DNA from: Acidobacteriota bacterium
GTDB taxonomy: Bacteria > Acidobacteriota > Terriglobia > Acidiferrales > 2-02-FULL-67-57
Direction of reading: 5' to 3'
NCBI GenBank assembly: GCA_016210855.1
Contig: JACQTJ010000021.1
Coordinates: forward strand, 1 to 55,714
Length of the DNA stretch: 55,714 nt
Below, piece after piece: positions 8,591 to 42,086 of this stretch. The translations under genes were made by a program, and so were the position numbers. The notes below the pieces were generated by a model that worked only from the letters and a program-made list of their open reading frames with translations, was not told where the DNA came from and did no database searches. Numbering within the stretch: position 1 is the first letter of the stretch; each line of letters begins with the position of its first letter.

Positions 8591-9231
8591 TTCCTCCTTG
8601 CCTCCTCTTTTTGTCCGGCGCGCAGTTGCCGAACGGTTTCCGCAAGGTCGGAACTGGTTTGAAACAGGGAGATGGCGGCCAGGCCGGCGGCCCCAGTCTG
8701 GAGGCAGGCGGCGGCGTTGGCGAGCGTGATGCCGCCCAGAGCCAGCACCGGAATCCCGACGGCCCGGACCGCTTCGGCAAGTTTCTCGAGCCCGAGCGGC
8801 GGCCCGTAGGCTCGCTTGGAGGCGGTTTCATAGACGGGGCCAAAGACGGCGAAGTCGGCCCCGCCCTCTTCGGTGCGGCGCAGCTCCTTCAAGTTGTGGC
8901 AGGACGCGCCCAGGAGCAAATCCGGGTAGTGCTGGCGCAGCTCGGCCACGGGAAAACCCTGGGTGGGCAGATGCACGCCCGCCTGGGCGGCCAGGGCCAC
9001 GTCCAGGCGGTCGTTGACGAGGATCCGAGAGGGGCGGCCGCGGGCGCGCCCCACGGCGCTCTCCACCAGGCCCAGCAGGGCGCGGGTGTCGAGGTCGCGC
9101 TCGCGAATCTGGATGAGCTCAACCTCGGCGGCAATGGCCCGCCCGATGATCGGCAGAACATCCTCGGCAGGCGCAGTCCGGCGGTCGGTGATGTAGTAGA
9201 GCAGGGGGCGGGTCTCAGGCAGTCTGGCCAC
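8587..9231 (-). CDS. thiE: Thiamine phosphate synthase family (ThiE/TenI)
   Basis: LYYITD, QIRERD, LVNDRLDVA, GASCH, VLALGGIT; start approximate. Confidence 0.82.
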   Translation of the reverse strand: MARLPETRPLLYYITDRRTAPAEDVLPIIGRAIAAEVELIQIRERDLDTRALLGLVESAVGRARGRPSRILVNDRLDVALAAQAGVHLPTQGFPVAELRQHYPDLLLGASCHNLKELRRTEEGGADFAVFGPVYETASKRAYGPPLGLEKLAEAVRAVGIPVLALGGITLANAAACLQTGAAGLAAISLFQTSSDLAETVRQLRAGQKEEARRK

Positions 9232-9538
9232 GGCGAACCGAGCCCCGGTCGCCCTCAATTCCGGCCCCCGCTGCGGGGCCGGACGGGGAAGCGGCGAGCA
9301 AGACATCGAGCACTTCCCGGAAGTGGGCGACGTACCAGGCCCCCAGGCCGATGTCGACCAGACCCAACCCCGAGAGGGCACCGCGCAGGTAGTGGTTCAG
9401 CAGCCAGGGCGACAGGCCGGGGAAGCGCAGCAGGAAGTAGTTGTGTTCCCAGAGCGACGTCCAGGGGAGCACCACCAGGAAAACGCCCAACTCCAGGCAA
9501 AACAATATCAGCGACAGGAGAAAAAGGCGGGAAATCAT
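9215..9538 (-). CDS. Small hypothetical membrane protein
   Basis: Two hydrophobic segments; operonic position. Confidence 0.7.
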   Translation of the reverse strand: MISRLFLLSLILFCLELGVFLVVLPWTSLWEHNYFLLRFPGLSPWLLNHYLRGALSGLGLVDIGLGAWYVAHFREVLDVLLAASPSGPAAGAGIEGDRGSVRRGQTA

Positions 9539-9565
9539 CTCACCCGCCGGCTGTTGGGAACGGCA

Positions 9566-12082
9566 CTAGGAACCTTGCAGCTCGCGAATCCGTTCGCCCA
9601 CGTTGCGATAGTCCACGTTGGCTCCGTAGACCTCCATGAAGCAATCCAGGGCCGCCTTGCGGTTGCCGGCCTGCTCGTGGGCCACGCCCATGTCGTAGCG
9701 CAACGCCAGGGCTCCTTCTTCGTCGAGCCCCGGGGCCTTGAGCGCCCGCTCGTACCAGCGCACGGCGATGTTGGGAAGGCCTTTCTCCATGAAGCAAACC
9801 CCCAGCAGGGTGCAGACCCGGAACAGGTGGGTGGCGTCGGCGGTCTTCTCGGCTGCCTTCACCACCTTCTGGAACTCGCTGATGGCTTCCTCCATTAAGC
9901 CCATCTCTTTGTAGGCAATCCCTAGGTTGTAATGGGTTTCGACGTCTTCGACCTCTTCGACCGTCCCCAGCTCTTCTTTGAATTCCTCGAACACTTCGGC
10001 CAGGGCACCGGCAGGCGGTTCGGCGCCTGCCGCCACCGGGGCTTTGGCGGCGGGGCCTTTGGCTCGCGGTGGGGCGGCGCCAGCCAACGCCTGATCGAGG
10101 TCGCTGGCCAGGTCGGCGAAAAAGTCGCCGGCCGACATGGGGCCAGCCGCAGCCGGAGCCGCCGGTTGTGCCGGCGGCTCCGGCTCGAGCGCAATCTCGT
10201 AGGTTTCGCCTTCTCTGGCCACAGCCGCCTCTGCCGGTGCCGCTTCGACTGGAGCGGCGGCCCCTTCTACCCGGGCGCGGAGCTCGGCCAGGGCGGGCTC
10301 GCCGGGGAAGTCCCGCTCGTAGCGGGCCACTGTTTCGCGGGCTTGGTCAGCGAGTCCCTGGGCGAGGTAGAAATCGATCTCCTGCGCGGCTTCGGCGGCG
10401 TTGAAGGCGGCGGCAGGGATTTCGACGGCTGCCGCGGGGCCTTCTTCCGGCCCGGTGGCACTGGCCCACTCGGCGGAGAGGTCCACCTCGTGCAGGACGG
10501 GCTCGGGGACCGCGGCCGCCGGGGCCTCGACCCCGGCCGCCGCCGGCACTTCCTTGCCGAGTTTCTCGGCGTAGCCGCGGGCCAGTTCGCCCACCTCTTC
10601 GGCGCGGCCGTGGGTGCCCGCCTGGCGGTAGAGAGCCTGCAGCTTGGGGGCGAGCTCTACCACGCCCTGGTCGTTTCCGGTGCCAACGTAAAAGTCGAGC
10701 AGCTTCTCGTGGGCCGGGAGGTGGCTAGGGACGCGCCCGATGACCTGGCGGGCCAGCTCGATGGCCTTGTCGGTCATCCCGTAGCTGGAGAAGAGGTCAA
10801 TGTCGGTCATGGAGGCATTGATATAGGCCAGGGTGTCTTCGTCCAGCGCCGCCTCGGGCGCCGCCGCCGCGGCCGGGACAGGCGGGGTGGACGCCTCGAC
10901 CACCCCCGCTGGCTCGCCCAGCTTCTCCCGGATGCGGTTCAGCTGCTGAGTGAATTCGGGGTTCTCCGGCTGCAAGCTGACCAGCTGGTGGTAGAGCTGC
11001 TTGGCCAAGCTGTGGTCTTCGGCGCGAGCGGCTAGGCCGGCCCGGCGACTCAGAGCTTCGAGCAGCGCGCTCGAGTCGCCGGCCTTGCGTGCTGCCTGGA
11101 TGAGCAAGTCAGCCGCACTCCCTGAGCCCTGAAGCAAGGCAGACACCGAACGCGCCACCGGCAGAAAGTGGAAGGGGTCGTGCGCCAGGGCCGGTTTGGC
11201 GATGCGCTCGAGCAGCCCCAGGGCTTTCTGCCCGTCCTGCTCCTGGGCGGCGTGCTGGGCGAGCTGGAGGAGGCTTGAGAAGTTCTTGGGGTCGGCGGCA
11301 AAGAGCTGTTCCGCCATTTCTTCGGCCGACCCGGCCTCGCCCGCGCCCAGCCGGGCCTTCATCAGCAGCTCCTGGGCCTCGGGGTGCTGGTCGAGGTTGG
11401 GGATTCTCTCCAGGATAGCGAGGGCTTCTTCGCCCTTCCCCTGGCGCTCGAGCAGCTTTGCCTTGAAGAGGAGGACTTCGGGGTCCTGCGGGGCCAGGGC
11501 CGTGGCCTTCTGCAGCCACTTCTGGCTCTCATCAATCTGCTCGGAGTGCAGCAGCCGCTCGGCGAGCCGACGGTAGACGTGGGCGGCTTCGGCCTTCTGC
11601 CCGTGGCGCTCGTAGAGGTCGGCCAGCCGCTGCTGGATCTTGACGTTCTCGGGATCGAGGTCGAGGACTTTGTTCATGACCTCGATGGCTTTCTGGGCGT
11701 TGTTCGCCTTGAGCAGAACCTCGGCGAGTTGCAAGTACTGCTGCCGCGCCTCGGTCATCAACCCCTGCATGGTGTAGAGGTCGGCCAGGCGCTCCAGGGC
11801 GTTGGTGTTCGAGAGGTCGAGCTTGGAAATCTTCTTGTACATGGCGATGCCCCGCACCAGGAAGCCATCGCCCACGTACAGGTCGGCCAACTTGCCGTAA
11901 TAATTGAGCGCTTCGGGATTGTTATTCAGGCGGGCGTAAAGGTCGCCCAGGGTGTTCAGGACGTTCTGATCCTTCGGTTCTTGCTTGTGGATCTTGAGGT
12001 ACTCAGCGACAGCTTCCTTCAGCTTTCCCTGGTTGAAGAGCTGCTGCGCCGCCTCGATAGCTTTCGCCTTGTTGAATGCCAC
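9566..12082 (-). CDS. Large tetratricopeptide repeat protein
   Basis: Many TPRs, Ala/Pro-rich linkers, C-terminal ETHYNLGIAYKEMGL TPR block. Confidence 0.88.
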   Translation of the reverse strand: MAFNKAKAIEAAQQLFNQGKLKEAVAEYLKIHKQEPKDQNVLNTLGDLYARLNNNPEALNYYGKLADLYVGDGFLVRGIAMYKKISKLDLSNTNALERLADLYTMQGLMTEARQQYLQLAEVLLKANNAQKAIEVMNKVLDLDPENVKIQQRLADLYERHGQKAEAAHVYRRLAERLLHSEQIDESQKWLQKATALAPQDPEVLLFKAKLLERQGKGEEALAILERIPNLDQHPEAQELLMKARLGAGEAGSAEEMAEQLFAADPKNFSSLLQLAQHAAQEQDGQKALGLLERIAKPALAHDPFHFLPVARSVSALLQGSGSAADLLIQAARKAGDSSALLEALSRRAGLAARAEDHSLAKQLYHQLVSLQPENPEFTQQLNRIREKLGEPAGVVEASTPPVPAAAAAPEAALDEDTLAYINASMTDIDLFSSYGMTDKAIELARQVIGRVPSHLPAHEKLLDFYVGTGNDQGVVELAPKLQALYRQAGTHGRAEEVGELARGYAEKLGKEVPAAAGVEAPAAAVPEPVLHEVDLSAEWASATGPEEGPAAAVEIPAAAFNAAEAAQEIDFYLAQGLADQARETVARYERDFPGEPALAELRARVEGAAAPVEAAPAEAAVAREGETYEIALEPEPPAQPAAPAAAGPMSAGDFFADLASDLDQALAGAAPPRAKGPAAKAPVAAGAEPPAGALAEVFEEFKEELGTVEEVEDVETHYNLGIAYKEMGLMEEAISEFQKVVKAAEKTADATHLFRVCTLLGVCFMEKGLPNIAVRWYERALKAPGLDEEGALALRYDMGVAHEQAGNRKAALDCFMEVYGANVDYRNVGERIRELQGS

Positions 12083-12832: not shown

Positions 12833-12928
12833 GCCCGCGGAGTGTATCACAGCCCCGCAAGACGCCCCCGGGGAGACACCGGCGGCCCGAAGTGCTATCA
12901 TCCGCATCTGGGCGCTTGGGTCCTGCCG

Positions 12929-14323
12929 ATGAACGTCGTTCTCATCTCCACCTATGAGCTCGGCCGCCAGCCCTTCGGGCTGGCCTCACCGGCCGCCTGG
13001 CTGCGCCGAGTCGGCGCTCGGGTCACCTGCCTCGACCTCGCCAAGCAGGAGCTTCGAGAAGAGCCCATCCGCTCGGCCGACCTGGTGGCCTTCTATCTCC
13101 CCATGCACACCGCCACCCGCATCGCCGCCCGGGCCATCCCCAAAGTCCGGCGGCTCAACCCCCGCGCCCACCTCTGCGGTTACGGCCTCTACGCCCCGGT
13201 GAACGAAGGCTACCTGCGCGGCCTGGGCGTCCAGACCCTGCTTGGCGGAGAGTTTGAAGAGGGGCTGGTGCAGCTCGCGGGACGGCTCGAACAGGGCCAC
13301 AGCCAGGGTCCGCAACCGGAGCCGCTCATCTCGCTGGCCCGGGAGCAATTCCTGGTCCCGGACCGCTCGGACTTGGTGCCGCTCGCCCGCTATGCCCGCC
13401 TGCGGGTGAACGGCGAGAGCCGCACCGTCGGCTACACGGAGGCGAGCCGGGGCTGCAAGCACCTCTGCCGCCATTGCCCCATCGTTCCCGTCTACAACGG
13501 TGTCTTCCGCATCGTGCAGCCCGACGTGGTGCTCGAAGACATCCGCCGGCAGGTAGCCGCCGGTGCCGAGCACATCACCTTCGGCGACCCCGACTTCTTC
13601 AACGGCATCGGCCACGCCCTGCCGCTCATCGAGGCCCTGCACCGCCAGCACCCCCGTCTCACCTATGACGTCACCATCAAGATCGAGCATCTCTTGAAGC
13701 ACTCCGAGCGCCTGTCCGCGCTGCGCGACACCGGGTGCCTGTTCGTTACCAGCGCGGTGGAGTGCGTGGACGACCGCATCCTGGCCCGGCTCGACAAAGG
13801 CCACACCCGCGAGGATTTCATCCGAGTGGTCCGCCGCTTCCGGGAAATCGGTCTGACCCTGGCCCCCACCTTCGTGCCCTTCACCCCCTGGACGTCGCTC
13901 GAAGGGTACCTGGACCTGCTGGCGACCCTCGCCGGGCTCGACCTCATTGAGAACGTGGCCCCGATTCAGCTCGCGATTCGCCTCCTGATTCCCGCCGGCT
14001 CACGGCTCCTGGAGCTGCCCGAAGTGCAGGCCCTCGTGGGCCCGTTTGACGACGCTGCCTTGAGCTACCGCTGGCAGCACCCCGACCCGCGCGTGGATGA
14101 GCTCCGCCGAGAGGTCCAGGACGAGGTGAAGCGCGGCGAAGCCCGCGGCGAAACCCGCCGGCAGATCTTCGCCCGCCTCTGGGAGCTTGCCCACCAGGCC
14201 GCGGACCGACCCTCGCGCCAGTTGCCCGATACGGCCCTGCTCGCCCGGGCGGCCATCCCGTACCTGACCGAGCCCTGGTACTGTTGAGCCGAGCCCACCG
14301 AAGAGCAGGTCGCTCTTTTCTAG
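12929..14323 (+). CDS. CUAEP-tail radical SAM selenoprotein (B12-binding-like N-terminus; Sec at UGA 14285-14287)
   Basis: CKHLCRHC motif; reading through TGA gives EPWYC-U-AEPTEEQVALF*, ending 4 nt before the next ATG. Confidence 0.88.
14288..14320 (+). promoter_or_regulatory. Candidate bacterial SECIS element
   Basis: Stem AAGAGC/GCTCTT (14301-14317), loop AGGTC beginning 19 nt after the UGA. Confidence 0.6.
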
Positions 14324-14327
14324 TCCC

Positions 14328-15590
14328 ATGAAGAACGCGGACGCCAAGCTGCTGCTGCTTTCGACCACCTCGAGCTACGAGACCAGGCTGTTTGTGGAGG
14401 CCGCCGAAAGACTCAGCATCCCGCTGCTCTTCGGCACCGACCGCTGCCACCGGCTCGACGACCCCTGGCAGGACGGGGCCCTGCCCCTGCGGTTCGAAGA
14501 GCCGGAAGCCTCGGCGGGGGTGATTGTCGAGCAGTCGCGCACCCAGTCCATTCAGGCGATCGTTCCGCTGGGTGACCGGGCTGTGCGCACCGCCGCGCTG
14601 GCTTGCCAGGCGCTGGGCCTCTCCCACAACCCCCCCAGCGCCGCCGAGGCCTGCCGGAACAAGTTCATCGCCCGCCAGCGCCTCCAGGCTGCCGGCCTCT
14701 GGGTCCCGCCCTTCGCGCGCTTCTCCATCTACGAGGACCCGCGGCCGCGCTTGGACGAGATGCCGTTCCCGTGCGTGCTCAAGCCGCTCTCGCTGTCGGC
14801 GAGCCAGGGAGTCATCCGGGCCAATGGCCCCGAGGAGTTCCTGGCTGCCTTCGAGCGCATCGCCCGCCTGCTGCGCCAGCCCGACATCCAGGTGCTCCGG
14901 GAAGAGACCCTGGGCGAGCTCTTGGTGGAAGGGTTCATTCCCGGGCCGGAGTTTGCCCTGGAAGGATTGCTCGACCACGGCCGCCTGCGCGTGCTCGTCC
15001 TCTTTGACAAGCCCGACCCGCTCGAGGGCCCCTACTTCGAAGAGACCCTCTACGTCACGCCCTCCCGCCTGCCGGAGGCGAAACAACGGGAGATCATCGG
15101 CGCCGTGGAAGCGGCTGCGAAGGCGCTCACGCTCTGCCACGGGCCGATCCACGCTGAAGTCCGCCTGCCGGCGGACGGCCCGCGCGTGCTGGAAGTGGCG
15201 GCGCGGGCCATCGGCGGCCTGTGCTCGCGAGCGGTCCGCTTCCAGACGGGGATCTCACTGCCGGAATTGATTCTCCGCCACGCCTGGGGGCTGCCCATCG
15301 AGCCGGTGGTGCGCGAAGACGCCGCCGCGGGCGTGATGATGATTCCCATCCCGCAGGCCGGGATCTTTCACGGGGTCGAGGGCCTGGAGGAAGCCCGGCA
15401 GGTCCCCGGCATTGAGGACATCGCCATCACCGCCAAGCCAGCTCATCCCATCGTCCCGCTGCCGGAGGGCGCGAGCTACCTGGGCTTCATCTTCGCCCGC
15501 GACTCTTCCTCGGAGGCGGTGGAGCGGGCTTTGCGGGAAGCCCACGGGCGGCTGCGCTTCCGGATTGGGCCCGAGTTGCCGGTCGTCTAA
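14328..15590 (+). CDS. ATP-grasp domain ligase
   Basis: CRNKF, FPCVLKPLSLSASQGVIR, LVEGFIPGPEFALEG, HAEVR, LEVAARAIGG. Confidence 0.9.
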   Translation: MKNADAKLLLLSTTSSYETRLFVEAAERLSIPLLFGTDRCHRLDDPWQDGALPLRFEEPEASAGVIVEQSRTQSIQAIVPLGDRAVRTAALACQALGLSHNPPSAAEACRNKFIARQRLQAAGLWVPPFARFSIYEDPRPRLDEMPFPCVLKPLSLSASQGVIRANGPEEFLAAFERIARLLRQPDIQVLREETLGELLVEGFIPGPEFALEGLLDHGRLRVLVLFDKPDPLEGPYFEETLYVTPSRLPEAKQREIIGAVEAAAKALTLCHGPIHAEVRLPADGPRVLEVAARAIGGLCSRAVRFQTGISLPELILRHAWGLPIEPVVREDAAAGVMMIPIPQAGIFHGVEGLEEARQVPGIEDIAITAKPAHPIVPLPEGASYLGFIFARDSSSEAVERALREAHGRLRFRIGPELPVV

Positions 15591-15746: not shown

Positions 15747-16028
15747 TTACTGCTTCTGCTGCGGGGGGACGTAGCCGGGCGGGAGCTTGGCATCCTTGCT
15801 GAAAAAGAACTTCTCGGCTTCGGTGGAGATGATCTCCCAGGCCTCGGGGGTGGCGGGGTTGAGTTGGTACTCGTTGATGACCATCTTCACGTGCTCTTTC
15901 CACATCTCCCAGGCCTTCCGGGAGACGCTTTCGTAGATGCGCTGGCCGAGTTCGCCGTTGTAGGGAGACTCGTCCAGCCCGGGGAGCATCTCCCCGAATT
16001 TCACGCATTTGACCAGCCGCTCGCCCAT
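15747..16028 (-). CDS. yggX: Fe(II)-trafficking/oxidative damage protection protein
   Basis: VKCVK, GELGQRIYESVS, MVINEYQL, PPGYVP. Confidence 0.9.
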   Translation of the reverse strand: MGERLVKCVKFGEMLPGLDESPYNGELGQRIYESVSRKAWEMWKEHVKMVINEYQLNPATPEAWEIISTEAEKFFFSKDAKLPPGYVPPQQKQ

Positions 16029-17085: not shown

Positions 17086-17784
17086 TCAGCGGTAGCCCAC
17101 GCCCGGATGCAGCAGGTTCAGGGCCAGGGTGTAGAGCGGCTCGAAGAGCCGCCCGAAGAGGTACCAGGCGAGCAGCAGCCCTGCGAGCCCGTAGGCGCGG
17201 CTGAAGTCGCGGAAGCGGCGCGCCGTTGGCTCGCTCATGAGCAAGGTGACCGCGGTGTTTCCGTCCAGCGGCGGCACCGGAATCAGGTTGAAGAGAAAGA
17301 GCAGCAGGTTGAGTACGAACAGCACGCTCAGCAGCGTAGCCGCGGCCTCGAGCCAGCCCGGCTGGGTGGCGGCGACGATGTGCGTGAACGTGGCCCGGGC
17401 CGGAGCGCTGAAGGCACCAGCCAGAACCGCCAGCCGGATGGCCGCCGCTGCCAGCAGCAGCAGAGCCAGATTGGCGGCCGGCCCCGCCAACGCCATCCAG
17501 GCCGCCCGCCGCGGATGGCGCTCCGCCCACAGGGGATCGTACGGGGCGCTGGCCCAGCCGATCATCCAGCCACCGAGGAAGTAGGAGGCCAGCGGCACCA
17601 CCACCGCTCCGAGCGGCTCCCGGCGGATGTGCGGGAGGGGATTGAGCGAGGCCTGCCCGCCGAGCGCCGCCGTCGGGTCGCCGGCCCATTGCGCCGCCCA
17701 GGCGTGCGCAGCCTCGTGGCAGGTGGTCGAGAGCAGGAACACCACGTACCAAACCGCCCCCAGGATCAGGGTTTCTGTGGCCAA
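17086..17784 (-). CDS. Site-2 protease (M50)
   Basis: HEAAH, GDPTA, AGPAAN, NLIPVPPLDG. Confidence 0.92.
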   Translation of the reverse strand: MATETLILGAVWYVVFLLSTTCHEAAHAWAAQWAGDPTAALGGQASLNPLPHIRREPLGAVVVPLASYFLGGWMIGWASAPYDPLWAERHPRRAAWMALAGPAANLALLLLAAAAIRLAVLAGAFSAPARATFTHIVAATQPGWLEAAATLLSVLFVLNLLLFLFNLIPVPPLDGNTAVTLLMSEPTARRFRDFSRAYGLAGLLLAWYLFGRLFEPLYTLALNLLHPGVGYR

Positions 17785-17838
17785 CTTTTCCCCTTCCGCG
17801 CGAATCCAATCGCGATACTATCACGGGGAGGGGAGACG

Positions 17839-18627
17839 ATGAGGCCGGGTCCCGCTCTTCTTCTGGCGGCTCTGCTGCTCGCCGTGCGGCCCGCTCCGGG
17901 CCACTCCCAGCTGTGGATCAGCGAAGCCGCCGCTCCAGCCCGCATTGAAGTCAGCTACACCGAGCCCTCCGACGCGGGGCAGGCCGAGCGGCTGCGCGAT
18001 CTGGCGGCGCGGCTGAAGCCCGTGGCCGACCAGCTTGAGCCGCTCGACCTCGTTGAGATTGTCATCGTTCACTCCCCGGCCGAAATGAGCCGCCGCCTGG
18101 GCGCAGAGGATGCCCTGAGCGGCGTCAGCTACCTCCACGGCATCCTCTTCCTTTCGCCTGTCTCCTGGCAGCGCAACCCTACCCAGGAAGCCCTCGAGCA
18201 CGAGATGGAGGGGGCCCTGGTGCGCTACACCGCGAGTCGCCTGGCCGGCGGCCAGCGCCTGCCCGACTGGCTCGAGCAAGGATTGGTGAGCGCGCTCACC
18301 CGGCAGCCGTTTGCGCCCGCCACGGCCGAGCTCATCGCCGCTCGCGGCCCGCTTCTGCTCAGCCGCTTTGAGGCGGACGACGCCGCGGTCGGCTACTGGG
18401 CGGTTCGTTATCTTGTCGAGGCCCGCGGCGGCTTGGGTCCGGTGCGCCAGCTGCTCCGCTTGGTGGCGCAGCGGCCCGATACTTTCGTCGAGAATCTGCA
18501 ACTGGTCTACGGGGTTTCTGCCGGGGAGCTTGAGCGCGCCTGGCGGCAGTGGCTGTTGGAGCAGGCCGAAGCCGGTCGGCGGGAAAGGGGCGGCGAAGGT
18601 CCCCTTATCCGCGACCGCAACCCGTAA
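17839..18627 (+). CDS. Secreted peptidase MA-like protein with degenerate zinc motif
   Basis: Signal peptide; LEHEMEG and PDWLEQGL resemble HExxH / PxWxxEG. Confidence 0.55.
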   Translation: MRPGPALLLAALLLAVRPAPGHSQLWISEAAAPARIEVSYTEPSDAGQAERLRDLAARLKPVADQLEPLDLVEIVIVHSPAEMSRRLGAEDALSGVSYLHGILFLSPVSWQRNPTQEALEHEMEGALVRYTASRLAGGQRLPDWLEQGLVSALTRQPFAPATAELIAARGPLLLSRFEADDAAVGYWAVRYLVEARGGLGPVRQLLRLVAQRPDTFVENLQLVYGVSAGELERAWRQWLLEQAEAGRRERGGEGPLIRDRNP

Positions 18628-19146: not shown

Positions 19147-19292
19147 CGGTACTCCCCGGAGCTGAACGAAGCTTTTACTTTAGCACAGATGCGCCCGGCT
19201 GCCTAGCCCTGCCCTTCGGGCCCGTCTTGACGCCTCTCGGCAGGCTGACCGACAATGGTGGCTGCTTCATTCAAACGCTGAGGTTCTTCTTT

Positions 19293-19604
19293 ATGGGATT
19301 GCTGGGCCTGTTTCGGCGGATTGACCGGCGCTCCTGGCACATTTGCTACGAGTGCCTGCGCAACCAGGACAACGTCGCCGAGGAGGCCATCTTCTACTAC
19401 GACGGGCCGCCAGAAGAGCATCTGGGGCGGCCGGTGGTCCGCTGCCCGCGCTGCAGCGCGGTCAACACCCGCTCCTTCCAGTTTCTGAAGGACACGGCGG
19501 AAGACGCAGCGCTCTTCGGGCTGGAGCGCATCGTCAAGAAAAACCCCCGGGAGCGCTTTGCGGTGAAGCCGCCCCCGGCGTCCGGGCCGGCCGCGCCCGC
19601 CTAG
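19293..19604 (+). CDS. Hypothetical zinc-binding protein
   Basis: CYEC...CPRC pairs; host-like codon usage. Confidence 0.7.
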   Translation: MGLLGLFRRIDRRSWHICYECLRNQDNVAEEAIFYYDGPPEEHLGRPVVRCPRCSAVNTRSFQFLKDTAEDAALFGLERIVKKNPRERFAVKPPPASGPAAPA

Positions 19605-40658: not shown

Positions 40659-42086
40659 ATGCCCACCAAGCCGCAGACTGGAAAACGAACCGTCTGGCGG
40701 GGACCCCGGCTCCGCGACCTGCCCTCGGTGGACGAGCTGCTGCGGAGCGAGCGTCTTCGCCGCCTAGCCGAAGAAGTCGGCCGGCCGCTCGTACTGGCGG
40801 CGGCCCGCCAGGTGCTTGCCGGCTTGCGCGAGCAGATCCGCCGCGGCCGGTCGGGCCCCGAGTTCGAGTCCGTCCTGGCCCACCTGCCGGAGGAAGTGAC
40901 CGGGGAGGTGCGCGAGCTGCTGGGGTTATCCCTGCAACCGGTGATCAACGCCACTGGCGTGGTTCTGCACACGAACCTCGGCCGCGCCCCGCTCGGGAGG
41001 GAAGCCGCGCGGGGCGTGTTCGAGGTCGCTACCCAGTATTCGAACCTGGAGTTCGATCTCGGCAAGGGAGCCCGGGGCCGGCGCGATGTCCACGCCGGCA
41101 AGTTCCTCGACCGGCTGCTTGGCGCCGAGGCCAGCTTGGTGGTCAACAACAACGCCGCCGCCGTCCTGCTGGCGCTCAACACGCTGGCCGAAGGCGGCGA
41201 GGTGGTGGTCTCGCGGGGGGAGCTCATTGAAATCGGCGAAAGCTTCCGCATCCCAGACATCATGGCCCGCAGCGGGGCCGTGCTGCGCGAGGTGGGCACC
41301 ACGAACCGCACCCGCATCGGCGACTACGCCCGTGCCCTCAACAAACAGACGCGCCTGCTGCTGCGCGTGCACCCGAGCAATTTCCGCCTGGAAGGCTTCA
41401 CGGCGCGGCCCGCGCTGGAGGAGCTTGTAGCCCTGGGCCGCCGGCGCCGGCTGCCTCTGGTCGAAGACCTCGGGAGCGGCCTGCTCGTGGACCTGAGCGG
41501 GCAGGGACTCGCCCAAGAGCCCTTGGCGGCGGCCAGCCTCGGCGCCGGCGTGGACCTGGTCACGTTCAGCGGCGACAAGCTGCTCGGCGGCCCGCAGGCG
41601 GGCATCATCGCCGGGAAGAAAAAGCTGGTGGAGCGCTGCCGGCGCAACCCGCTCTTCCGCGCCCTGCGCGTGGATAAGATGACTTACGCCGCGCTCGAAG
41701 CCACCTTGCGGAGCTACCTGCGCGGGGGGCTGGAGGACGTCCCGGCCTTGCGACTCATCCGGCTGACGGCGGCCGAAATCGGCGAGCGGGCGGAGGCATT
41801 GCGGGCGTCACTCGAAAAAGACCTGGCGGGGGGCGCGGCGCTGAGCGTTCGGGCGGGGCAGTCGGTCGTGGGCGGCGGCTCGACCCCGGGTTACTCGCTG
41901 CCGACGAAGCTGCTCGTAATCGCTGCGCAGGGGATGAGCCCGGCGGAGCTGGCGGCGCGCCTGCGCCGGGCCCACCCGCCCGTAGTGGTGCGTGTCGAAG
42001 CCGACCGCGTGCTCGTGGACCTGCGCACCGTCTTCGAGGACCAGCAGACGGCGCTCGCCGCAGCCCTGCGGCAGGCCCTCAGCTAG
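40659..42086 (+). CDS. selA: L-seryl-tRNA(Sec) selenium transferase
   Basis: VINATGVVLHTNLGRA, SRGELIEIG, EVGTTN, FSGDKLLGGPQAG. Confidence 0.97.
   Translation: MPTKPQTGKRTVWRGPRLRDLPSVDELLRSERLRRLAEEVGRPLVLAAARQVLAGLREQIRRGRSGPEFESVLAHLPEEVTGEVRELLGLSLQPVINATGVVLHTNLGRAPLGREAARGVFEVATQYSNLEFDLGKGARGRRDVHAGKFLDRLLGAEASLVVNNNAAAVLLALNTLAEGGEVVVSRGELIEIGESFRIPDIMARSGAVLREVGTTNRTRIGDYARALNKQTRLLLRVHPSNFRLEGFTARPALEELVALGRRRRLPLVEDLGSGLLVDLSGQGLAQEPLAAASLGAGVDLVTFSGDKLLGGPQAGIIAGKKKLVERCRRNPLFRALRVDKMTYAALEATLRSYLRGGLEDVPALRLIRLTAAEIGERAEALRASLEKDLAGGAALSVRAGQSVVGGGSTPGYSLPTKLLVIAAQGMSPAELAARLRRAHPPVVVRVEADRVLVDLRTVFEDQQTALAAALRQALS

Follow-up and report, generated by a model that had tools for sequence, protein, structure and literature searches.

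Background

Does the radical S-adenosylmethionine (SAM) gene that begins at position 12929 of contig JACQTJ010000021.1, from the assembly GCA_016210855.1 of an Acidobacteriota bacterium, end at its first in-frame TGA, or is that codon read as selenocysteine (Sec), and what might an enzyme with such a C-terminus do? The stretch analysed here (the window) comprises the 55,714 nucleotides from position 1 to 55,714 of this contig, and the assembly to which it belongs measures 1.88 Mb in 130 contigs and is 87.4% complete. An initial annotation, made from the letters of the window alone, had called the gene a hidden selenoprotein with a Cys-Sec tail.

By sequence comparison we assign a probability of roughly 0.88 to the reading in which 12929-14323 encodes a 464-residue selenoprotein of NCBIfam family NF040546, with its UGA read as Sec and a selenocysteine insertion sequence (SECIS) hairpin downstream. 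The gene is an ordinary member of an already curated family that is itself a known selenoprotein family, so that the label 'hidden' was overstated; what is new here is the genomic context. That context suggests, rather than shows, that the enzyme resembles ArsL in taking a tail-delivered substrate and in making an amino-acid product.

Results and discussion

Reading frame and family membership

From the ATG at 12929 (+) the frame runs into a TGA at 14285-14287, and the open reading frame (ORF) list, made with translation table 11, closes the frame at 14287, just as the initial annotation had observed. When this TGA is decoded as Sec, the product has 464 residues and ends in ...EPWYC-U-AEPTEEQVALF before a TAG at 14321-14323; read-through thereby adds 12 residues to the 452-residue form, with Sec at position 453. 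Only 4 nt separate the TAG from the ATG at 14328 that opens the next ORF, and both the tail and this spacing agree with what had been described.

Against NF040546 ('CUAEP/CCAEP-tail radical SAM (seleno)protein') the read-through product scores 647.5 bits (cut-off 500), residues 3-462 aligning to profile positions 1-467 of 468. A six-frame search of the genome gives 640.8 bits for the same profile and finds one copy in the assembly, with a single TGA inside. The full-length match above the curated cut-off bears out the family that the initial annotation had named; the CxxxCxxC motif, the C-[U/C]-A-E-P tail and the alternation of Sec and Cys are likewise those of NF040546, and nothing material differs.

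The codon at the UGA position was compared across homologues in two samples. In 401 genomes of the same phylum (family match defined as E <= 1e-100), 70 contained a match, 61 with exactly one in-frame TGA and 9 without, two of the latter ending before the tail. Thirty of the phylum loci were fetched, and the tail was readable in 29 (26 TGA, 3 TGC), the remaining locus being broken by a contig end. A scan of one genome per species returned at least 599 stretches, at least 591 of which encode a relative; among the best 80 of these at least 599 stretches, 37 have TGA, 31 TGC and 10 TGT, and 2 lack the motif, a ratio skewed towards Cys because one of the two scan patterns required CC. In the Ala, Glu and Pro codons that follow the TGA, positions 1 and 2 are fixed and position 3 varies, the pattern typical of coding sequence. 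FastTree was used to build a tree of 104 distinct sequences (60 Sec, 44 Cys) after removal of identical rows and of rows shorter than 380 residues; it requires at least 14 switches between Sec and Cys, 11 of them forced by supported branches, compared with a mean of 33.6 after shuffling. A Cys opposite the UGA, which the initial annotation had proposed to look for, is therefore carried by 44 of the 104 distinct sequences, and homologues continue from Cys or TGA into an invariant AEP rather than ending at WYC.

These comparisons bear directly on the reading in which TGA 14285 simply terminates translation, leaving a protein of 452 residues with ...WYC at its end, and the conservation downstream has another cause, for example a translation-coupling signal for the ATP-grasp gene that follows. 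The 452-residue form held in the public collection and the failure to find selD in the assembly (see below) would fit such a stop; against it stand the Cys codon that replaces TGA in 44 of 104 distinct homologues with AEP continuing in frame, the coding-like third-position variation past the TGA, the alignment of NF040546 through the tail to position 467 of 468, and the retention of the tail even where no ATP-grasp gene follows. A plain stop is extremely improbable on this evidence and can be regarded as virtually eliminated, and the UGA at 14285-14287 is almost certainly read as Sec, as judged from the homologous codons.

The expectation that standard gene callers would truncate the gene proved correct. 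The entry for this contig in a public protein collection is exactly the truncated 452-residue protein, and a second, independently assembled member of the same protein cluster also has 452 residues. On the Thermomicrobium roseum megaplasmid (L152:6935-8371), a RefSeq-derived coding sequence that carries the CUAEP/CCAEP family name ends at its own TGA in the gene table distributed by PLSDB, a version that may omit translation exceptions, and read-through there again yields U-AEP. The deposited protein needs a 12-residue extension with Sec453, a correction that is routine as annotation; the same truncation hits many homologues, including the RefSeq-derived sequence already bearing the family name.

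A hairpin within the last codons

The candidate SECIS hairpin (Table 1) is contained entirely in the final 8 codons of the radical SAM gene, starting 12 nt past the UGA and leaving 19 nt between the UGA and the first base of its loop. The loop start given by the initial annotation, 19 nt downstream, stands; the loop length does not, the loop having 5 nt and not 4, so that the earlier description was one base off.

Comparison of 26 Sec-type sequences supports the helix (alignment columns 19-25/31-37), in which 87.4% of the cells are paired and five of the seven pairs change on both sides. The covariation score of the helix is 0.561 against a shuffled mean of 0.236 (reached by 0 of 500 shuffles), and registers slid by 1-3 columns score at most 0.24. 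RNAalifold independently predicts the inner six pairs, and the loop of the Sec-type homologues follows the consensus A-G-[U/G]-[U/C]-N, with the A and the G invariant. Pairing also tracks the codon: in Sec forms 5.16 of the 6 pairs are made on average and 32 of 57 sequences make all six, and in Cys forms the mean is 3.02 and 1 of 44 sequences makes all six, a comparison in which any p-value is inflated by kinship.

Support for the hairpin is taken from this comparison of homologues because folding of the single sequence is marginal. The isolated 27-nt segment folds at -8.1 kcal/mol (z -2.28), with 6 of 200 shuffles as good. Counting against the hairpin, contexts of 39 and 66 nt fold no better than shuffles (z -0.35 and +1.06, respectively), a competing fold appears, and a scan of 14150-14450 against Rfam with E up to 10 gave no match, that database apparently containing no bacterial SECIS model. 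A long helix between the A-E-P codons and the 3' arm, present in some minimum-free-energy folds, was rejected, since homologues of the GGGUC/GACCC type cannot form it; the small hairpin, unlike this alternative, is general among homologues.

The element is like the SECIS of the Escherichia coli fdhF type in being a short hairpin about 12 nt past the UGA with a conserved G and U in its apical loop, and unlike it in having a stem of only 6-7 bp, no evident bulged U and no matching Rfam model. The fdhF element itself has a spacing of 11 nt and makes contacts through the G and U of its loop. By the established bacterial mechanism, SelB carrying Sec-tRNA(Sec) would bind the hairpin at 14300-14318.

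Selenocysteine machinery in the genome

The window also contains selA, which the initial annotation had placed at 40659; the ATG there shares its frame with the SelA profile match, which spans 40710-42074 (score in Table 1). The genome has a tRNA-Sec gene (selC; 67.7 bits), called as SeC with anticodon TCA by ARAGORN, and a selB gene split by an assembly break into C40:17-367 (-), which scores 169.6 bits over profile positions 1-116, and C41:1-1623 (+), which scores 215.3 bits over positions 87-577. Contigs C40 and C41 are probably adjacent, with the selB halves at their ends. Of the three further genes that the initial annotation had proposed to seek, selB and selC are present, and selD was not found by a profile search of the whole 87.4%-complete assembly, in which the best match was ThiL; this gap, too, counts against Sec decoding. 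All five complete relatives from the same family, order and class (G014, G075, G229, G384 and G400) carry selD above the cut-off, and all five have selA, so that the gap is most simply explained by sequence missing from the assembly. Each of the five SelD proteins has one in-frame TGA, and SelD is probably itself a selenoprotein in these relatives.

Conserved residues, predicted structure and distribution

Pfam recognises the radical SAM core only (PF04055, 50.4 bits, residues 173-310). In an alignment of 29 sequences, the three cysteines of the CxxxCxxC motif (C176, C180 and C183) are invariant, as are C270, P444, L446, E448, W450, C452, U453, A454, E455 and P456, and C83 is conserved in at least 90%. 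The C-terminal C-[U/C]-A-E-P motif (WYC-U-AEP at residues 450-456) is thus found in 29 of 29 aligned sequences, within the strongly conserved tail pattern P-x-L-x-E-x-W-[YF]-C-U-A-E-P.

An AlphaFold2 model built on this alignment reached a predicted local distance difference test score (pLDDT) of 91.8 and a predicted template modelling score (pTM) of 0.91, with residues ~430-464 not confident. Its top fold matches in the PDB, with TM 0.57-0.68 and E values down to 2e-19, are AprD4 (6fd2), TsrM (6wte), MgmA (9ccb) and OxsB (5ul3), radical SAM enzymes of two domains of which the N-terminal one is Rossmann-like; MiaB comes next. Sequence profile matches in the PDB point the same way (9ccb, 6fd2 and 5ul2). 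The class B-like enzymes AprD4, TsrM, MgmA and OxsB, although the best structural matches, share only 12-19% identity with the protein, and none has a Cys-Sec tail. The radical SAM protein has no match to the Pfam B12-binding domain, though its fold resembles class B enzymes and AprD4. A layout consisting of an N-terminal Rossmann-like domain (of the type that binds cobalamin in class B enzymes), a barrel with CxxxCxxC and a C-terminal helical domain is strongly supported. No structure of ArsL or of a CUAEP-family protein was found in the PDB, either by sequence or by fold.

Named relatives among the at least 591 listed are mostly Acidobacteriota (Terriglobia, Acidiferrales, Bryobacterales), with others in Methylomirabilota, Chloroflexota, Actinomycetota, Pseudomonadota, Verrucomicrobiota and further phyla; the nearest among the matches listed, from a Terriglobia genome, has 74% identity and the same tail. 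The statement in the initial annotation that the reaction is not established agrees with the literature: in its accessible parts, bioRxiv 10.1101/2022.07.06.499078 lists the family among uncharacterized selenoproteins with a CU motif. We found no other relevant literature naming CUAEP or CCAEP, and neither NF040546 nor CUAEP occurs in the main texts (supplements not covered) of a 2026 selenoproteome review and of BSepDB.

ArsL as the nearest characterised relative

The second-best family for the protein is ArsL (NF040542, 273.3 bits), the next family scoring 47.7 bits, and a plasmid-borne protein with an RCCLKC tail aligns with 34% identity over 418 residues (E 2e-82). According to the available portions of the ArsL preprints, this enzyme, despite its CxxxCxxC motif, cleaves SAM to methylthioadenosine (MTA) and an aminocarboxypropyl (ACP) species, and no other radical SAM enzyme with this motif is reported there to break SAM on the 'wrong' side. 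The same portions state that the three cysteines at its C-terminus serve to bind As(III), and that removal of the tail abolishes product formation while leaving SAM cleavage and Fe/S content unchanged. ArsL, which has an RCCLKC tail and forms a C-As bond in arsinothricin biosynthesis, shares with the protein studied here the three-part architecture and a Cys-rich extreme C-terminus; the CUAEP gene differs in its housekeeping-like context, with YggX or NifU and no arsenic genes nearby.

Side observations were made on ArsL-type clusters from plasmids of Priestia, Bacillus cereus and Alicyclobacillus (L153, L154 and L155), in which genes for an RCCLKC-tail protein, an ATP-grasp protein, an AhpD-like protein and a 'GTP-binding protein' lie beside ArsR, accompanied variously by aquaporin/major intrinsic protein (MIP) genes, phosphate or major facilitator superfamily (MFS) transporter genes, ArsM and ArsN1. 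The content of these Bacillota clusters hints at an arsinothricin-derived peptide.

Genomic context

Features of the locus are collected in Table 1. The promoter-like match upstream agrees with 9 of 12 hexamer positions and has a TG extension (1 site compared with 0.2 expected from shuffles).

Table 1. Features of the radical SAM selenoprotein locus and associated genes in the window.
Feature	Position	Strand	Basis
Sigma-70-like promoter match, weak, pattern only	12873..12901	+	Upstream of radical SAM gene
Full coding sequence, predicted CUAEP-tail radical SAM selenoprotein (464 aa including Sec453, plus TAG)	12929..14323	+	NF040546 profile match; read-through translation
CxxxCxxC codons (C176, C180, C183), radical SAM [4Fe-4S] motif	13454..13477	+	Invariant in 29/29 aligned sequences
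Cys452-Sec453 codons (TGT TGA), UGA predicted to be recoded	14282..14287	+	Homologues with TGA or TGC/TGT at the UGA position
Predicted SECIS hairpin, 7-bp stem 14300-14306/14312-14318, 5-nt loop AGGUC 14307-14311	14300..14318	+	Covariation in 26 Sec-type homologues; pairing lost in Cys type
True stop codon TAG	14321..14323	+	Sequence
ATP-grasp ligase, L-amino-acid-ligase type; likely same operon (4-nt gap)	14328..15590	+	PF13535 106.1 bits; LAL_C2 (PF18603) 58.7 bits
YggX-type Fe(2+)-trafficking/oxidative-damage protection protein, convergent with ATP-grasp gene	15747..16028	-	NF003817 114.6 bits; PF04362
selA (selenocysteine synthase)	40659..42086	+	TIGR00474 566.1 bits (cut-off 267.9)

The product of the ATP-grasp gene aligns over nearly its full length (residues 22-409, E 3.4e-46) with the L-amino acid ligase BL00235 (PDB 3vot), its best match among solved structures, for which a review table (PMC6920838) gives Met-Gly and Met-Met as products. 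It has the same ATP-grasp_4 and LAL_C2 domains as BL00235 and BacD; unlike these, it is tied to a radical SAM selenoprotein and not to a known dipeptide-antibiotic cluster. Among 30 loci, 13 have an orthologue no more than 1.5 kb from the radical SAM gene; with a limit of 8 kb the figure is 12 out of 21, and with a limit of 2.5 kb it is 51 out of 80. Shared ancestry inflates these neighbour counts, the loci being mostly from one phylum. Across the 401 phylum genomes, 68 have both genes, 2 the radical SAM gene alone, 13 the ATP-grasp gene alone (a group that includes the unpublished G024 and five assemblies less than 90% complete) and 318 neither. Several genomes hold both genes far apart, and the link is therefore more than synteny.

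A YggX gene neighbours the radical SAM gene in 45 of 80 related loci, which differ in arrangement and belong to several phyla, and in loci of Methylomirabilota, Gammaproteobacteria and some Terriglobia it stands upstream on the same strand. Genes for NifU-domain proteins sit next to the radical SAM gene in 11 of the 21 loci and in 8 of the 80, and all ten submitted to Pfam were confirmed. A DUF169 (PF02596) gene occurs in 8 of 80 loci; it is often directly downstream of the radical SAM gene (L052, L056, L099, L106, L113, L122, L132, L136, L144, L150), and in some loci (L106, L132, L136) lies between the radical SAM and ATP-grasp genes.

A system of the type that makes ribosomally synthesized and post-translationally modified peptides from an ATP-grasp and a radical SAM enzyme was set aside, given that the ligase is of the L-amino-acid-ligase type and that the 4-nt gap leaves no room for a precursor (ORFs below 90 aa were outside the clustering). 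Elsewhere in the window, 9566-12082 (-) encodes an 838-residue tetratricopeptide repeat protein; at its N-terminus it is similar to SgmX, a protein of type IV pili formation, with a score of 227 bits that falls far short of the cut-off. At the thresholds applied, neither NCBIfam nor Pfam gave a match for the ORFs at 17107-18627 (+), 19227-19604 (+) and 8611-9639 (+), the first of which is present again, in whole or in part, in 5 of the 21 related loci.

A proposed role for the Cys-Sec tail

By analogy with ArsL, we tentatively propose, as a possibility rather than an expectation, that the Cys-Sec tail holds a substrate atom to which a carbon fragment of SAM is attached, giving an amino-acid product. 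In this scheme the Cys-Sec pair would hold a soft, thiophilic atom and bring it to the SAM/[4Fe-4S] site, where the carbon fragment (in ArsL, the 3-amino-3-carboxypropyl group) would be attached to it, and the product would be a methionine-shaped amino acid. The ATP-grasp enzyme of L-amino-acid-ligase type would then couple this amino acid to a second one, and the products of the neighbouring YggX or NifU genes would provide iron and Fe-S clusters or shield them from damage. Candidate atoms would be selenium or sulfur in the form of a (seleno)trisulfide, antimony and tellurium. The more specific version, namely a second non-canonical enzyme of the ArsL type whose two-ligand arm (Cys-Sec or Cys-Cys) would direct an aminocarboxypropyl group onto a soft atom other than arsenic, with the ligase completing a pathway to a dipeptide of a methionine analogue, is more doubtful.

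A number of observations weigh against an ArsL-like role. The modelled tail is of low confidence (pLDDT about 38-63), and the ArsL profile score of 273.3 lies below the cut-off of 450. The C-U-A-E-P tail offers two chalcogen ligands, whereas R-C-C-L-K-C of ArsL offers three thiols, and the CUAEP family has an invariant C270 and a near-invariant C83 that are both replaced in the ArsL-type protein, which would fit an auxiliary site instead. No ars genes are present near the radical SAM gene in the window, where the neighbours encode RNase HII, the ATP-grasp ligase, YggX and an SPFH protein, and none of 32 neighbour proteins scanned from related loci is arsenic-related. With regard to the ligase, an ATP-grasp gene is found in all three Bacillota ArsL-type clusters inspected, but its product is just 29% identical over 229 residues to that of 14328-15590, and the characterised arsQML cluster has no ATP-grasp gene, according to the abstract of PMC8552651. 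The orthologue also occurs in 13 genomes that lack the radical SAM gene, and no ATP-grasp gene stands within 7 kb of the T. roseum homologue, whose neighbours are an aminotransferase and an MFS transporter. The kinship of the loci that inflates the neighbour counts belongs on the same side.

Genomes of the family f26 (G024, G286, G357 and G389; 97-100% complete) hold the ATP-grasp orthologue and no CUAEP radical SAM gene in four cases out of four, and so the ligase can exist alone.

The absence of ars genes nearby, the different tail and the score under the ArsL cut-off together make an arsenic-specific role unlikely; the substrate is probably not arsenic.

Other roles for the tail

A different role, unlikely in our estimate, would be that of a mobile redox arm, in which the enzyme would perform canonical 5'-deoxyadenosyl radical chemistry and the selenol/thiol pair of the tail would complete the reaction by donating an H atom or electrons, cycling through a selenenylsulfide. 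Mammalian thioredoxin reductase, with its C-terminal Cys-Sec, is the model for such an arm. The vicinal C-U pair on a flexible C-terminal segment of low pLDDT and the repeated interchange of Sec and Cys, as at redox-active sites, are consistent with this role, as is the presence among the best structural matches of AprD4, which has this two-domain layout and does not methylate. It would leave the tight co-occurrence with an amino-acid ligase unexplained, no conserved reductase partner is found among the neighbours in related loci, and ArsL, the nearest characterised relative, uses its tail for substrate binding and not for redox chemistry, as far as the accessible preprint text goes.

It is rather improbable that C452, U453, C83 and C270 (perhaps with H60) instead ligate an auxiliary Fe-S cluster or metal site, which would be consumed or damaged in turnover, as in sulfur-inserting enzymes, and rebuilt or protected by NifU and YggX. 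Such a site would account for the conservation of four Cys/Sec residues beyond CxxxCxxC (C270, C452 and U453 invariant, C83 at least 90%), for the replacement of C83 and C270 in the pairwise alignment with the ArsL-type protein, and for the recurrence of NifU-domain and YggX genes, together with one gene of the Mrp/NUBPL type, as neighbours; weak profile and fold matches to MiaB/RimO point in the same direction. To our knowledge, selenocysteine as an Fe-S ligand would be unusual, and the three-Cys motif that goes with auxiliary clusters of the MiaB type is missing from the N-terminal domain. Deletion of the ArsL tail, moreover, left Fe/S content unchanged in the part of the preprints that is available.

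An isofunctional ArsL of the arsinothricin pathway with a variant tail, to which the 34% identity across the whole core and the rank of ArsL as second-best family might point, is extremely unlikely in view of a score of 273.3 bits against a cut-off of 450 when that of a different equivalog model (NF040546) is exceeded, the missing three-Cys motif, and the lack of arsM, arsN or an arsenic transporter nearby.

Conclusions

Given that family and selenoprotein nature were already known, the remaining value of this locus lies in the enzyme chemistry and in the hypothesis derived from its context. NF040546 is a large unstudied sister family of ArsL in which the substrate-holding tail would be swapped for a Cys-Sec pair. 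Its partnership with an amino-acid ligase and with iron and Fe-S carriers gives a concrete hypothesis that is testable with the natural Cys-Cys homologues. If the proposal of a second ArsL-type enzyme is true, at least 591 of the species genomes scanned, mostly those of soil Acidobacteriota, would share a widespread pathway, so far undescribed, that leads to a methionine analogue with a heteroatom and on to the dipeptide of this analogue.

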